64,000 nucleotides of DNA from positions 1,701,089-1,765,088 of the forward strand of contig CBDAVM010000002.1 in assembly GCA_965200895.1 (NCBI GenBank), read 5' to 3'. The notes beneath the pieces are model-generated. The model saw nothing but the letters and a program-made list of their open reading frames with translations, did no database searches and was not told the origin of the DNA. The DNA comes from Vicinamibacterales bacterium. Its GTDB lineage: Bacteria; Acidobacteriota; Vicinamibacteria; Vicinamibacterales; UBA8438. The translations under genes were made by a program, and so were the position numbers. Below are positions 56,621-64,000 of the stretch, in pieces. Numbering within the stretch: position 1 is the first letter of the stretch; every line of letters begins with the position of its first letter.

Positions 56621-59756
<3,136 letters not shown>

Positions 59757-59757
<1 letters not shown>

Positions 59758-60263
59758 CAACCAGCGGCTCCGCTGTGCTCGAGCACGAACCGCGCTCGCT
59801 CACGTCGCAACATCTCGTACGGGGTCATGCAGCGCACGCCGAGGGCGACGCAGGCGTTCGGAATCTTGATCTTGCGGTCGGTATTTGCGGGAACCTCGTG
59901 CGTCACGACGATGCAGTCGTGAGCCACCGCGTGCGCAACGAGCCAGTAGTCAGCGACCTGCAGGAAAGTCCCAACCGCCGCGGACGTATAGCCCGCGCCA
60001 CCGGCCCAGTCGCTCACGGTCTGAAGCGTACCGAGCACGGAGTCGTCCGGCCTCAGAAAGAAGCCGCTGCCGCGCTCGGCAGCCCATCGGGCCAGATCGT
60101 CGTCAACGGCATGGAGTTCATCGGCAACCTTCTCGACGCTCGCCACCGTTCCGTCCGCGTTCCTGCGGATCAGCCAGTCCCAGAATGCGGGGCAGAAGTC
60201 GAAGCCGTAGTGGAGATTCTTGGCCTGAATGAAGACGTTTGCGTCGAGGAGGTACCGGATCAC
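59757..60263 (-). CDS. DUF4411 PIN-like domain protein
   Basis: [31 protein letters not shown]...SVEKVADEL...LARWA...[20 protein letters not shown]...KIKIPNAC follows the DUF4411 pattern. Its GTG start overlaps the ImmA stop (GTGA). Confidence 0.8.
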
Positions 60264-61414
60264 GACAACGCCCCGACTTCACGTCCGAGGCGGTCGAAGG
60301 TCTCGGTCCTGGAGATACCAAGCATGCGATAGGCGTCCCGATAAAGCGTCTGCCCCTCCAGCGTGCTGACCACGACCGCCTGAACGAACCGGCGGCTCAT
60401 GCGAGAGAGCGTCGTCCGATAGAAGTCGCCTCCGCCACTGCCGCGCTGTGCAAGTTTGCGCAGACGGGTCGATTCGTGCGCCCAGGCCGCGTCGAACCTG
60501 TCGCGGTCAAGCCGGTTCGCATCAAGCAGGCGCCGCAGAATGACCAGCGGGCTGACCTTGAACGTGCGCGCCAGCCGGGCGAGTGCGTCGGGAAGCGCCT
60601 CGTCGTCGCGCAGTTCGGCCCGCAGTGCGTCCAACGGCGCCAGCAGCTCGGCCGCGACGGCGTTGCACCAGATTTCTTCACGCCGCTGTTGCTGAGTCGG
60701 CGCCGCCTCGCTGTTCGACAAGGCGGAGGCGCCGAGCCAAAGATGCGCAAGCTCGTGGGCCAGCGTGAACATCTGCGCCGCCTTCGTATCGGCGCCATTG
60801 ACGAAGACGAGCGGCGCCAGGGGGTCGGACAGTGCGAAGCCGCGGAACTCCGCGGGATCGAGCCGGCGGCTCGTGTTGCTCCCGACGACCCCGCTCACCA
60901 TGACGAGCACGCCCGCGTCCTCGGCTTGTCCGATCAGCAGCCGCAACGCATCGGTCCATGTCGGGCACGCGTGTCGGGCGGCCAGATCGACACCGAGCCG
61001 GGCGCCGATCATGGGCGCGACGGTCTCGGGCGCGATCGCGATGGTTGCGCTGCCGACGAAATCCGCGGCCGGTTGCCCGGCAATGCGGACGAACTCGCGA
61101 TACCAGCTCTGCCGCTCCTGGCAGGCGTGGATGGTGTCCAGCAGGTCAGGGCTCGGCCGCTCCAACGCCTGCCCGGCCAGGGTGCGGAAGTCCGCGATGG
61201 GCAGGGACTCTTCGGGAGGCTCGCTGAGGAACAGATAGCCGACTGGAACGTGGACCGCGCGGGCGAAGTCCTCAACCTGCCGCAGGGTGGGCCGGACCTC
61301 GCCCGCTTCCCACGCCGGCAACTTCCTGAACCGCGCCGCAAGACTCTCCGGCGCGAGGCCGGCGCGCTCGCGCGCCCAGCGGATCAGCGCCGGATTGACG
61401 GGCGCGCGCATCAT
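60260..61414 (-). CDS. XRE-type HTH + ImmA/IrrE family zinc metallopeptidase
   Basis: ATG 61414 sits 6 nt after GAGGGAGGTG. N-terminal HTH (LIRWARERAGLAPESLAARF...WEAGEVRPTLRQVEDFARAVHVPVGYLF). HEXXH in FTLAHELAHLWLG, with a downstream E in CNAVAAELLAP. Confidence 0.8.
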   Translation of the reverse strand: MMRAPVNPALIRWARERAGLAPESLAARFRKLPAWEAGEVRPTLRQVEDFARAVHVPVGYLFLSEPPEESLPIADFRTLAGQALERPSPDLLDTIHACQERQSWYREFVRIAGQPAADFVGSATIAIAPETVAPMIGARLGVDLAARHACPTWTDALRLLIGQAEDAGVLVMVSGVVGSNTSRRLDPAEFRGFALSDPLAPLVFVNGADTKAAQMFTLAHELAHLWLGASALSNSEAAPTQQQRREEIWCNAVAAELLAPLDALRAELRDDEALPDALARLARTFKVSPLVILRRLLDANRLDRDRFDAAWAHESTRLRKLAQRGSGGGDFYRTTLSRMSRRFVQAVVVSTLEGQTLYRDAYRMLGISRTETFDRLGREVGALS

Positions 61415-61440
61415 GGTCGCCACCTCCCTCAAGTGTCTTC

Positions 61441-62565
61441 TCATGCCTGTCCGTCGTCGCGAAAGACGCTTTCCACGTGCGGATTCAGCAATCTCCAGCG
61501 CTGGCCGGTGCGCTCGAGGTCCCCCGTCAACACCACCAGCGCCCGGTCCTTGTGGGCCTGAACCGCCCGGTCGTAGTCCGCCTGCTCCAGAACCGCCACG
61601 ACCGACTGCCGTTGCCCGTCGATCTCGGTTGCGAGACGGATCGTGCCGTCGTCCTCGGTCTCTCCGCGTTTCAGGAGCCGAACGAATCCGTGGAGACGCA
61701 CGTCGGGCCGGGGGGCGCGCTCGCGGAGCGACCGGGCCGCCTCGCGCAGGATTGGCGCATCGGCCCGACCGAATCGAACCACCGTCGTCGGCGCCGCCCG
61801 GGGTCGGGTCCGGGCCCACGAGATGCCCACGTCCAGCGTCGGGAAAGGCTCGACGAGCCGCACCAGCGCCTCCCACAGATTGGCGCTCACGCCCCGCGCC
61901 ACCGCGCCCGCGAAGGTGCTCCCGTCGCCGGCTGTTGCCGATTCGGTCGCCTCGCGCGCCGCCGTGAGCGCCTCCGCCAATCGCCTCGTCATCCGGCGTT
62001 CGATCGGCGCCTGCCGGTCGTCCGGATCCGGAAGCACCCCGGGCATCGGCGGCGGTACGACCGGCGTCAGCAGCGTGACCACGAAACTGCCCTGGTCGGT
62101 CTGTCCCACGCGCACACGGCTCAACAGGTCGCTCGCCGCGCGGTTCGGACCGTCACGGTAGACGGCCTGCGGTTCCCGAAGCGAACAGGCTGCCGACAGC
62201 AGCATGTCGCGCGCACCCGCGACGAGGTCGATGCCGTCGTGCAGCGTCAGGCTGCCGTCGTCGCTCTCCCCGGCGCGAAGGCGGACGACGTCGCGGTCCG
62301 CCGTCACGAGGGACCGGTAGACGGTCAATTGGTCCTGATCGGCGACCTGCGAGAAGGTCTCGACCAGTGTCGCCACGACGTTGGCGTAGTCCCCGAGGTG
62401 AGCCGTGCGCGGGACGATGATCTCCGGCAGCGCCTCGCCGTCGTAGACGTCCGAGTGCTCTCCGTACGGTTCGGACCGCCGCCAGCCGGCGGCGCGCACA
62501 TAGGCGGTGAGGGCGGCCGGCGAGACCGCCCGCAGCGCGTCGGCGTCGCGAATGCTGACCTTCAT
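61441..62565 (-). CDS. Hypothetical protein (374 aa), no recognisable domain; first gene of the ImmA/DUF4411/HsdR block
   Basis: ATG 62565; balanced, non-repetitive composition, unlike the Arg-rich antisense ORF. MKVSIRDADALRAVSPAALTAYVRAAGWRRSEPYGEH...; the stop lies 26 nt before the ImmA start. The first 78 codons are duplicated at 63667-63900. Confidence 0.65.
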   Translation of the reverse strand: MKVSIRDADALRAVSPAALTAYVRAAGWRRSEPYGEHSDVYDGEALPEIIVPRTAHLGDYANVVATLVETFSQVADQDQLTVYRSLVTADRDVVRLRAGESDDGSLTLHDGIDLVAGARDMLLSAACSLREPQAVYRDGPNRAASDLLSRVRVGQTDQGSFVVTLLTPVVPPPMPGVLPDPDDRQAPIERRMTRRLAEALTAAREATESATAGDGSTFAGAVARGVSANLWEALVRLVEPFPTLDVGISWARTRPRAAPTTVVRFGRADAPILREAARSLRERAPRPDVRLHGFVRLLKRGETEDDGTIRLATEIDGQRQSVVAVLEQADYDRAVQAHKDRALVVLTGDLERTGQRWRLLNPHVESVFRDDGQA

Positions 62566-62592
62566 CAGATCACTTCTCGTGGGATCGTCGCC
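62332..62592. repeat. Direct repeat copy 1 (5' end of the 374-aa gene plus ~27 bp upstream)
   Basis: Hand alignment of 62332-62565 with 63667-63900 gives 234 bp, no indels and 9 mismatches (about 96%). Weaker similarity continues about 27 bp past the ATG. Confidence 0.85.
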
Positions 62593-62836
62593 TTCCGGCC
62601 CGCCCCGGGCGATCCGCCAGCCTCGCGATCCACTTCCGGTCGAACCTCTGCGACCACTTGTCGACGGTGGTCGTGGACATGCCGACCTCCTGCGCAACGT
62701 CCGCTTGCCTCATGCCCTGGCCGCGCAGGAGCACGATACGGGGCGCGGAGGCTGTCGCGGGTGATAAACGCCGATCCGGTGTCGGAACAGATGCGTCGGG
62801 CCTGTACCCGTTACCTTTCGAGCGAGTCCGCGACAT
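62570..62836 (-). CDS. Small HTH protein resembling the N-terminal DNA-binding part of IS630-type transposases (fragment or exapted regulator)
   Basis: APRIVLLRGQGMRQADVAQEVGMSTTTVDKWSQRFDRKWIARLADRPGRAGR matches the rariVLl..G.s...iA..lg.s..TV.kW..Rf...G...L.DrpR.GR pattern. No DDE domain follows. The stop lies 4 nt before the 374-aa gene ATG. The ATG 62836 overlaps the upstream gene end by 26 nt. Confidence 0.5.
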   Translation of the reverse strand: MSRTRSKGNGYRPDASVPTPDRRLSPATASAPRIVLLRGQGMRQADVAQEVGMSTTTVDKWSQRFDRKWIARLADRPGRAGRRRSHEK

Positions 62837-63569
62837 CGTAACCCTTCCTCGTGACCTCAAACAAGTTCCGAGCATCCCCTGTGGCCCTGACGAAATCGTT
62901 AGCCTCCAGTTCTTCCATCCCGGCGACCCAGGAAGCCACGTCCCTGGGTCGGACGTTCTGAGGAATGAATGATCTTTCACCCACCTGAATAGACACACCT
63001 GGGGAACCCAGACCGCGGCGGTACTTAATTTTTCCGTCTCCGACCGCGGCAGTCCTGAGAATTTCTTTCGCTTCGCGCGACAACGACTTGCTGAGATCGT
63101 CTGAACTGACGAGCAATAGCTGCCCTACCTCGAGGTTGTTGTTCTCGATACTCCTCCCTCGTGCGCTGTCCGCAGCGAGCCGTGCAGTTACTCGCTCCAC
63201 GATATCCCTGTGAAGCTGTTTGAAGTCACTTGGCGTCGCCGTCCCATACTTGATGACAACCCGATGCCGAATATCGAACGGCAACCGCTCAGATCGGGAC
63301 TTCGCACAGATCATGACTACCGGCCCACCCGCGGCGTACGCGAATCCGAGCTCGTACCACACATTCGGGTTGTCAGTCGTGATGTCGGCAAGACAGATGT
63401 CGGCGTTCCGTATTCGATCCTCGATTGCCTCGATTGGTACATCGACAGCCGGATCGCGATCAACTCGATACGGCTCAACGCCGGCTTCGTTCAGGGCCGG
63501 CGCAAATACTTCGTCGTATCTCTTGTCGTTTTCGTCGTCGAACGGCTGGATCACAAAACACATTGGCAT
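62811..63569 (-). CDS. Low-GC gene: nucleoside 2-deoxyribosyltransferase/TIR-like Rossmann-fold N-terminal domain + unassigned C-terminal domain (252 aa)
   Basis: GAGGAA RBS. CFVIQPFDDENDKRYDEVFAPALNEAG...ADICLADITTDNPNVWYELGFAYAAGGPVVMICAK resembles the D..G/N....E.G.A.A.G.P core of NDT-fold proteins. The C-terminal ~110 aa are unassigned. GC is visibly lower than the flanks. Confidence 0.6.
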   Translation of the reverse strand: MPMCFVIQPFDDENDKRYDEVFAPALNEAGVEPYRVDRDPAVDVPIEAIEDRIRNADICLADITTDNPNVWYELGFAYAAGGPVVMICAKSRSERLPFDIRHRVVIKYGTATPSDFKQLHRDIVERVTARLAADSARGRSIENNNLEVGQLLLVSSDDLSKSLSREAKEILRTAAVGDGKIKYRRGLGSPGVSIQVGERSFIPQNVRPRDVASWVAGMEELEANDFVRATGDARNLFEVTRKGYDVADSLER

Positions 63570-63624
63570 GGCATTCCTCAGTCAATACGAGTCCACACTT
63601 CTTCGCGGCGAACGACGTTGGCCC

Positions 63625-63900
63625 TCAACTTGCGACCCGCCTCGGCAGCAAAAGGAGTGTGCACGCGTCCTGATCGGCGATCTGCGGGAACGTCTCGACC
63701 AGTGTCGCCACGACGTTGGCGTAGTCCCCGAGGTGAGCGGTGCGCGGGACGATGATCTCCGGCCGCGCATCGCCGTCGTAGACGTCCGAGTGCTCTCCGT
63801 ACGGTTCGGACCGCGGCCAGCCGGCGGCGCGCACATACCCGGTGAGGGCGGCCGGCGAGACCGCCCGCAGCGCGTCGGCGTCGCGAATGCTGACCTTCAT
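63625..63900 (-). pseudogene. Truncated duplicate of the 374-aa gene (first 78 codons, then unrelated tail)
   Basis: MKVSIRDADALRAVSPAALTGYVRAAGWPRSEPYGEHSDVYDGDARPEIIVPRTAHLGDYANVVATLVETFPQIADQD, then ACTLLLLPRRVAS and a stop. Similarity to 61441..62565 ends exactly at the repeat boundary. Confidence 0.7.
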
Positions 63901-63929
63901 CAGATGATCCCTCTCGTGCGAGCGTCGCC
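63667..63929. repeat. Direct repeat copy 2
   Basis: See 62332..62592. Confidence 0.85.
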
Positions 63930-64000
63930 CCGGTCCGGCGGGTCGGCCGGCTGGGGGAGTCGTCGAGCGTGTCGTCGGGGAGGTTGGGATTGAGACAGGC
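63915..64000 (-). pseudogene. Second hsdR 5'-region fragment (continues beyond the window end)
   Basis: 63959-64000 aligns with 59550-59591 (35/42 identical by hand). The minus-strand translation ACLNPNLPDDTLDDSPSRPTRRTGATLAR parallels HsdR residues [30 protein letters not shown]. Confidence 0.45.

Follow-up and report, generated by a model that had tools for sequence, protein, structure and literature searches.

What kind of protein is encoded by a gene of foreign composition in the middle of a type I restriction-modification (R-M) and defence locus, and is the gene a working part of that locus or a passenger in it? The question is raised by the gene for a 252-aa protein, P0001, located on the minus strand near the end of a 64,000-nt stretch from a Vicinamibacterales bacterium (assembly GCA_965200895.1, contig CBDAVM010000002.1, positions 1,701,089 to 1,765,088), which is referred to below as the window. 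P0001 is composed of an N-terminal domain of the nucleoside 2-deoxyribosyltransferase (NDT) type, a helical stalk, and a C-terminal domain with a predicted winged-helix-like topology. We consider it probable that P0001 is a stand-alone, single-polypeptide anti-phage sensor-effector of the abortive-infection (Abi) type. For its enzymatic activity, substrate, trigger and phenotype, we infer the scheme given below from the fold, the conserved residues, the domain distribution and the genomic context.

The N-terminal domain was classified by structure and profile comparisons. A model of P0001 was built with AlphaFold2 on 74 homologues (mean predicted local distance difference test score, pLDDT, 88). 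In a Foldseek comparison with the Protein Data Bank (PDB), the top match of this model was an NDT (8pqt, 1.7e-5), followed by the CMP N-glycosidase BcmB (4jen, 4.3e-5) and DNPH1 (5e-4), and the TIR structures of SPARTA, TIR-STING, SpbK and MyD88 were matched at E of 1e-4 to 1e-3. The matches in a viral structure library were to CMP/hmCMP hydrolase, NDTs and the CAP12/Pycsar TIR. At the sequence level, P0001 matches the Pfam family PF05014 (nucleoside 2-deoxyribosyltransferase, clan Nribosyltransf; E 3.7e-5), as do 73 of the 74 family members (E <= 0.01; best E 1e-7), and five of the 74 match TIR_2. The sole PADLOC match of P0001 is the CBASS “TIR effector” model (1.2e-7), and a scan of the protein against NCBIfam returned no match. 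Comparison of the family profile with PDB sequences pointed to DNPH1/Rcl (E about 0.1) and blasticidin M hydrolase. The Pfam, PADLOC, AlphaFold2 and Foldseek results all place residues 1-112 in the group of NDT/DNPH1/TIR-type flavodoxin-like folds, in agreement with the NDT/TIR-like domain proposed in the initial annotation. The latter had also mentioned a SLOG relationship; no SLOG or LOG profile or structure turned up in any search, and membership in this group was rejected.

Enzymes of the NDT/DNPH1 superfamily possess a catalytic glutamate after beta4 (E98 in LlNDT, E93 in Rcl) and, 22-26 residues before it, an acidic residue that binds the sugar 3'-OH (Asp72/Asp69). In the PDB profile search, the family motif LADITTDNPNVWYELGFA was aligned on VAEVTQPSLGVGYELGRA of Rcl, which puts E73 of P0001 on the catalytic E93; the NVWYELG segment of the family thereby corresponds to GYELG of Rcl. 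Both E73 and E50 are invariant in the 74 sequences, and F5 is nearly invariant, a phenylalanine in place of the classical tyrosine found in NDT and DNPH1 at the end of beta1 (Tyr7/Tyr13). In total, the family alignment has 31 invariant columns, among them E50, D62, N67-P68-N69, W71, E73 and P97-F98-D99..H102-R103, and the invariant motifs read PYRVDxDP, LADIT, NPNVWYELG and PFDxxHR. The peptide in which the initial annotation had recognised the arrangement of an NDT-type active-site core is present in P0001 and contains E73. The best sequence and fold matches (NDT, DNPH1 and CMP N-glycosidases) would also be those of an ordinary nucleoside-salvage or nucleotide-sanitising enzyme, that is, a classical NDT or a DNPH1 orthologue with a regulatory tail. 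However, the sequence likeness is marginal and under the Pfam thresholds, the classical tyrosine is replaced, and the gene is a strain-specific one of foreign composition; moreover, the gene and the relatives examined were all located in defence or mobile islands, and none belonged to an operon for nucleotide metabolism. A housekeeping role is therefore regarded as very improbable.

The C-terminal domain (C-domain) follows the stalk and a short linker. In the full-length model its predicted topology is alpha-alpha-beta hairpin-alpha-beta hairpin-alpha, and the domain modelled by itself adopted the identical topology (pLDDT 88; predicted template modelling score, pTM, 0.81). The domain is recognised by neither Pfam nor NCBIfam, and a search of the C-domain profile against PDB sequences yielded nothing meaningful (best, TTHA0540, E 1.3). 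Its weak fold matches are eS10, AF1382, TubR, MarR, RosR and SSV1 F-93, and on the basis of the model the domain appears, weakly, winged-helix-like. The net charge of the C-domain is 0 in P0001 and lies between -3 and -6 among the closest relatives; that of the helix in the “recognition” position of the P0001 domain is -3. Protein binding therefore fits this domain better than DNA binding.

The distribution of the C-domain among other proteins was determined with a profile constructed from nine C-domains, which was used in an exhaustive search of 1.84 billion cluster representatives. With a cut-off of E <= 1e-3, the profile matched 1,086 representatives, of which 146 remained at E <= 1e-10. 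When residues 150-252 alone were used in a word-indexed homologue search, the query was the only protein returned. Some of the matched proteins consist of a single C-domain of about 90-130 aa; others contain two or three copies in tandem, or have the domain as the C-terminal part of a larger protein. In the 148 highest-ranking C-domain proteins, the identifiable N-terminal partners were TIR_2 (19 proteins), DUF4062 (15), TIR and CAP12/Pycsar TIR (three each), and ThsB_TIR, PNP_UDP_1, isochorismatase and NDT (one each); weak likeness to several winged-helix families, including HTH_45, was seen in the same set. Most of the heads joined to the C-domain are NAD or nucleotide degraders, and, judged by these fusions, the C-domain seems to behave as a sensor-type module on NADase heads. 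Many of the DUF4062 proteins contain two or three tandem C-domains (e.g., P0130, P0141, P0143 and P0158), and some C-domain proteins consist of the domain alone or have it fused to transmembrane or zinc-ribbon N-termini.

The DUF4062 partner links P0001 to an experimentally studied defence system. In 2026, DUF4062 was established as a TIR-like NADase, and the single-protein Swarozyc KpSwz was found to contain a DUF4062 head with the catalytic residue E97, helical stalks, and an auxiliary (AUX) helix-turn-helix (HTH)/winged domain, the hairpin of which anchors on the phage portal; portal binding to this AUX domain switches on NAD+ hydrolysis (bioRxiv 10.64898/2026.05.01.722283). DUF4062/NIR was further described as an effector of modular build, with AUX regions that resemble sensors (bioRxiv 10.64898/2026.06.25.731849, 10.64898/2026.09.04.749371). 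Among the proteins detected here is a 294-aa protein that combines DUF4062 and the C-domain. About 1,983 relatives, each some 280 aa long, align with it along their full length, and Glu97 is found in 109 of the 119 inspected. The other published marks of KpSwz (W176 and W238/Y239) were sought in the DUF4062 matches and occur in no sequence, E97 being general to the subfamily. A DUF4062 copy on a Salmonella plasmid is truncated by the insertion sequence (IS) IS3, and distant blastn from this copy led to an intact Escherichia coli gene encoding WP_000331919.1. The latter protein possesses an E97-type DUF4062 head, which matches the PADLOC model PDC-S60 (3e-26), and the last 87 residues of the protein can be aligned with the C-domain profile of P0001 (hhalign probability 96%, E 4e-9); BLASTP of P0001 against WP_000331919.1 gave 2e-8. 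The E. coli gene (L014 3785-4633, chromosome of strain 510016) is located between a recombinase gene and IS1/IS3 copies in an integrase island beside fimG/fimH. These alignments demonstrate, at the level of sequence, homology between the C-domain of P0001 and the C-terminal domain found in DUF4062 proteins of the E97 type, and we strongly infer that the former corresponds to the experimentally studied AUX domain of KpSwz.

The N-domain is modular as well. Its family comprises more than 3,000 members in a 5.8-billion-protein collection, with heads that are 55-77% identical and tails that vary. The C-domain of P0001 is common to a small branch only (P0002-P0009 and P0020), and the proteins of the main branch, which are about 258 aa long, possess another C-domain, which is MarR-like (PDB profile E 0.011); homology between the two C-domains was not detectable (hhalign probability 4%). 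Further C-terminal modules include a different winged HTH, TPR, a region with a P-loop motif, and unrelated C-termini. Phage records of streptococci and staphylococci contain distant homologues of the N-domain, as do plasmids, where the homologues are fused to TPR-type repeats; the phage-borne homologues are 30-36% identical and lie a few kb from the record end (e.g., Streptococcus phage 315.2, 3408-3836; Javan454). An acidic ...DD[DE][IVLM]PF tail ends 74 of 120 family sequences (relatives P0013-P0120, main branch) and is not present in the P0001 branch. This pattern is identical to the C-terminal tip of bacterial SSB, which recruits ExoI, RecQ, PriA and others, and in the main branch it suggests mimicry of an SSB partner or docking.

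The winged-helix topology and the SSB-like tail bear on an alternative role in nucleic acid metabolism, in which the C-domain binds DNA or RNA and the NDT-like domain is a recruited DNA or nucleotide glycosidase or a ligand-binding transcription regulator. It would be in line with the weak resemblance of the C-domain to MarR, TubR, RosR and HTH_45, with the MarR-like C-domain of the main branch and with the acidic DDIPF tail of that branch, which points to DNA-metabolism partners; in addition, RcaT effectors pair an NDT-like domain with a DNA-binding domain that binds msDNA. This role is nevertheless judged unlikely: the C-domain is neutral in P0001 and negatively charged in the closest relatives, with an acidic “recognition” helix, its fusion partners are effector heads (TIR, DUF4062 and PNP) rather than regulator modules, and a retron reverse transcriptase or noncoding RNA gene is absent among the neighbours of P0001.

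The genomic neighbourhoods of the relatives are those of defence genes. The genes for P0009 and P0048 lie within type I R-M systems, with hsdS on one side and hsdR or hsdM on the other, P0104 adjoins an N6-methyltransferase and PemK, P0004 adjoins integrases and DruA/DruE-like (Druantia) genes, and P0002 adjoins a TIR_2 gene and recombinases, while P0035 lies in integrase and toxin-antitoxin islands with AbiU2 and SieB genes. No conserved partner gene was found in the neighbourhoods of seven homologues. Varied neighbourhoods without a partner are the signature of a stand-alone defence-island gene.

In the sensor-effector scheme proposed for P0001, the N-terminal domain would act as an N-glycosidase effector, with E73 as the nucleophile or general base helped by E50 and F5, the C-terminal module would serve as the infection sensor, and the stalk helices would couple sensing to oligomerisation and activation. 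The enzyme would be kept inactive in uninfected cells. Upon infection, the C-domain would bind something made by the phage, for which the Swarozyc example suggests a multimeric structural protein, for instance the portal, and the binding would draw the N-domains together; the N-glycosidic bond of an essential nucleotide would then be cut, and phage replication would stop. Within this scheme, NAD+ is tentatively favoured as the substrate, at somewhat below an even chance, with a (deoxy)nucleoside monophosphate as the alternative, whereas the portal as the trigger is a doubtful proposal made by analogy. It could further be supposed that the NDT-like heads of this family, with more than 3,000 members, constitute a new class of anti-phage effectors that act on a (deoxy)nucleotide rather than on NAD+, by a DNPH1-like deoxynucleoside monophosphate (dNMP) N-glycosidase reaction and are mounted on interchangeable sensors, a generalisation to which we assign a low probability. 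The sensors could then be the Swarozyc-type winged-helix module in P0001 and the MarR-like domain with the DDIPF tail in the main branch, where the tail could dock the enzyme on SSB-interacting replication and repair proteins or trigger it through them.

The composition of the P0001 gene differs strongly from that of its neighbours. GC content in a sliding window drops from ~0.70 to 0.55-0.58 across the gene; its overall GC is 0.562 against 0.70 for the whole 4.98-Mb genome, in which only 0.16% of 756-nt windows are as GC-poor, and GC at third codon positions is 0.643 against a median of 0.90 in 2,195 long reference open reading frames (ORFs). The codon adaptation index (CAI) of 0.369 is lower than that of every one of the reference ORFs; the neighbouring hsdR and PDC-M02B genes have CAI of 0.83 and 0.66, respectively. 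No full-length orthologue of P0001 was found in 14 genomes of the same genus, the best matches being to the N-domain only (53-56% identity). Because of these foreign GC and codon statistics, together with the lack of a full-length orthologue in the genus, horizontal acquisition of the gene is confirmed, as the initial annotation had proposed on the basis of its low GC and contrast with the flanks. The gene is strain-specific and compositionally foreign.

Several observations weigh against the sensor-effector reading. The PF05014 score of P0001 (24.3 bits) is below the gathering threshold of 28.8, and the TIR_2 match (E 0.018) is below the cut-off. E50 is positioned 23 residues ahead of E73, and a gap-free hidden Markov model alignment puts it one position off D69 of Rcl, so that E50 is a possible, not an exact, counterpart of this residue. 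The isolated C-domain had winged-helix matches in Foldseek at E >= 0.02 and TM about 0.5; of the two possibilities offered in the initial annotation for this domain, the winged helix is thus upheld weakly, and the sensor type draws its support from the fusions to NADase heads. The equation of the C-domain with the Swarozyc AUX domain was made through an E. coli protein of the DUF4062/E97 type, not through KpSwz itself, and no DUF4062 chain for structural comparison was present in the PDB set searched. Finally, the cassette around the gene is scarred (transposase remnant, duplicated fragments), and a consensus scan found no sigma-70-type promoter.

The last two points, along with very poor codon adaptation and flanks made up of broken genes (parts of hsdR and PDC-M02B, and a transposase HTH), would be expected of a silent or decaying passenger that entered by way of an IS or with the help of sequence homology and has since lost its expression or function in this host. 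On the other hand, the 252-codon frame is unbroken, every invariant residue of the family of more than 3,000 proteins has been kept, the Shine-Dalgarno sequence is good, and read-through from upstream genes on the same strand may occur. We consider a decayed gene rather unlikely and retain the reading of P0001 as a stand-alone sensor-effector.

The history of the locus was reconstructed from repeats and from a paralogous copy (Table 1). A type I R-M/defence locus surrounds the P0001 gene on both sides and extends past the end of the window; the description of the gene in the initial annotation as the first of an array does not hold as worded. On the minus strand, the gene order is hsdM, a gene for an NTase_sub_bind protein, a gene for a fusion of a nucleotidyltransferase (NTase) domain to HsdS, PDC-M24A (DUF6978), PDC-M24B (DUF1828/1829) and the hsdR 5' fragment, followed by the truncated 5' end of PDC-M02B, the P0001 gene, intact PDC-M02B, HTH-ImmA/IrrE, DUF4411 and hsdR. 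The cassette with the P0001 gene, which also contains the transposase remnant between this gene and intact PDC-M02B, is bracketed by two copies of the PDC-M02B 5' end. The upstream copy is preceded by the last ~8 codons of PDC-M02A, all that survives of this lost gene at the window locus. A paralogous R-M locus in the same genome (contig C1, about 722000-737000) is 98%, 97% and 94% identical at the DNA level in hsdM, hsdR and PDC-M02B, respectively; it contains an intact PDC-M02A/PDC-M02B pair (PDC-M02A model, 1.6e-55) without the NDT cassette, and serves as a natural “empty site”. The cassette may have arrived by single-crossover integration of a circular piece bearing a 5' fragment of PDC-M02B.

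Table 1. Features of the P0001 gene, its product and the surrounding cassette (window coordinates)
Feature	Position	Strand	Basis or remark
Complete coding sequence, 252-aa NDT-like/winged-helix protein (P0001)	62811..63569	-	ATG start; stop codon 62811-62813
Shine-Dalgarno-like GAGGAA	63574..63579	-	5 nt upstream of ATG; read from sequence
N-terminal flavodoxin-like NDT/DNPH1/TIR-type domain, residues 1-112	63234..63569	-	Pfam, PADLOC, AlphaFold2, Foldseek
Candidate catalytic set	F5 63557-63555; E50 63422-63420; E73 63353-63351	-	Conservation in 74 sequences
Long alpha-helix “stalk”, residues 113-147	63129..63233	-	AlphaFold2 secondary structure and pLDDT; followed by low-confidence linker 148-155
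C-terminal winged-helix-like module, residues 156-251, proposed sensor	62817..63104	-	AlphaFold2, weak fold matches, domain distribution
Lower-GC cassette carrying the P0001 gene, 1,096 nt	62571..63666	-	GC and repeats; absent from paralogous locus
Transposase N-terminal HTH remnant, ~70 codons, no catalytic domain	62573..62790	-	HTH_29 1e-6, HTH_23 1.3e-6, HTH_28 2.8e-5
Upstream copy of 239-nt direct repeat, truncated PDC-M02B 5' end (first ~78 codons)	63667..63905	-	96% identity to 62332-62570
Downstream copy of 239-nt direct repeat, 5' end of intact PDC-M02B	62332..62570	-	96% identity between copies
Intact PDC-M02B gene	62565..61441	-	PADLOC 1.7e-120
hsdR 5' fragment fused upstream of truncated PDC-M02B	63921-64000, on to L002 about 5114	-	80% identical to intact hsdR codons ~57-83 (59513-59591)

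The position of the P0001 gene directly upstream of PDC-M02B, which is the slot of PDC-M02A in the contig C1 locus, and the loss of PDC-M02A from the window locus would be consistent with P0001 being a functional partner of the downstream PDC-M02B that replaces PDC-M02A in a two-gene system. However, P0001 matches neither the PDC-M02A nor the PDC-M02B model of PADLOC, and its identification as PDC-M02A was rejected on this ground; furthermore, tblastn detected no PDC-M02B beside the homologues in seven loci (L006-L012). Because the cassette is bracketed by duplicated PDC-M02B 5' ends and a transposase remnant lies between the two genes, an accidental insertion rather than an operon is indicated, which argues that the adjacency to PDC-M02B is accidental. 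There is little reason to expect a partnership of this kind.

Other parts of the locus contain additional candidate defence genes. The PDC-M24A (DUF6978, 2.6e-52) and PDC-M24B (DUF1828+DUF1829, 6.2e-103) pair lies just past the window (L002 5118-6424, minus strand, equivalent to window positions 64118-65424), between hsdS and the hsdR fragment, and is lower in GC. The HsdS protein (L002 6327-8476, minus strand) has an N-terminal nucleotidyltransferase domain (Polbeta/NTP_transf_2) and is preceded by the NTase_sub_bind protein; by their domain content, the two look like an MNT/HEPN-like pair embedded in the R-M operon. Between PDC-M02B and hsdR (window 59757-61876, minus strand), an HTH protein with an M78 ImmA/IrrE peptidase domain (PADLOC RmrA/CapP-like, 1e-15) and a DUF4411 protein (5e-54) are encoded. 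The first ~140 codons of the listed 538-aa HTH-ImmA ORF overlap PDC-M02B, so that its actual start probably lies further downstream, near 61450.

If the sensor-effector reading is true, the winged-helix AUX domain of DUF4062 NADases would not be exclusive to DUF4062 systems, and an AUX-type domain would be a portable infection-sensor cassette used by at least eight NAD- or nucleotide-degrading heads. In addition, more than 3,000 NDT-like proteins that are absent from PADLOC 2.0 would become candidate defence effectors.

Four groups of known systems are comparable to P0001. The closest parallel is Swarozyc: judged from the model, P0001 appears to share with it a flavodoxin-like glycohydrolase head with a catalytic glutamate, a helical stalk and a C-terminal winged-helix domain with a beta-hairpin, and both are single genes of defence islands with horizontal spread. 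The head of P0001 differs in being NDT-like, without a match to PF13271 (DUF4062) at E <= 1, and homology of its C-domain to the AUX domain of KpSwz is drawn through the E. coli relative. The second group includes the RcaT effectors of type II retrons (Retron-Sen2, Eco1/Ec86), which possess an NDT-like domain with the Phe/Glu/Glu triad F28/E85/E107. F5, E50 and E73 of P0001 have the same composition, with similar spacing between the glutamates and a second domain after them; however, the neighbourhood of P0001 contains neither a reverse transcriptase nor msr/msd, for which reason a retron context was rejected, the PDB profile search revealed no sequence likeness to RcaT, and the C-domain of P0001 is not basic. 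With the NDT, DNPH1/Rcl and CMP N-glycosidase (BcmB/MilB) enzymes, P0001 has in common the fold, the catalytic glutamate in a “YELG”-type motif and, as a possible counterpart of Asp72/Asp69, an acidic residue some 23 positions ahead of that glutamate, whereas it differs from them in the Pfam score under threshold, the change of Tyr to Phe, the invariant PYRVDxDP, NPNVW and PFDxxHR motifs added in its family, the stalk and sensor-type domain, and the defence-island context. Bacterial TIR effectors (CBASS/Pycsar, SpbK and SPARTA) resemble P0001 at the level of fold and through the CBASS “TIR effector” model, and C-domains of the P0001 type are fused to bona fide TIR domains elsewhere; the active-site spacing is W-x-E in P0001 instead of the usual W-x-x-x-E of TIR domains, and profiles favour NDT over TIR across the family. 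The kind of system, a single-protein TIR-like or NDT-like Abi effector with a C-terminal sensor, is thus already known. New, in that they are not described in PADLOC 2.0 or in the literature searched, are the combination of head and sensor in P0001, the NDT-like family to which it belongs, and the portability of the DUF4062-type C-terminal module across at least eight effector heads.

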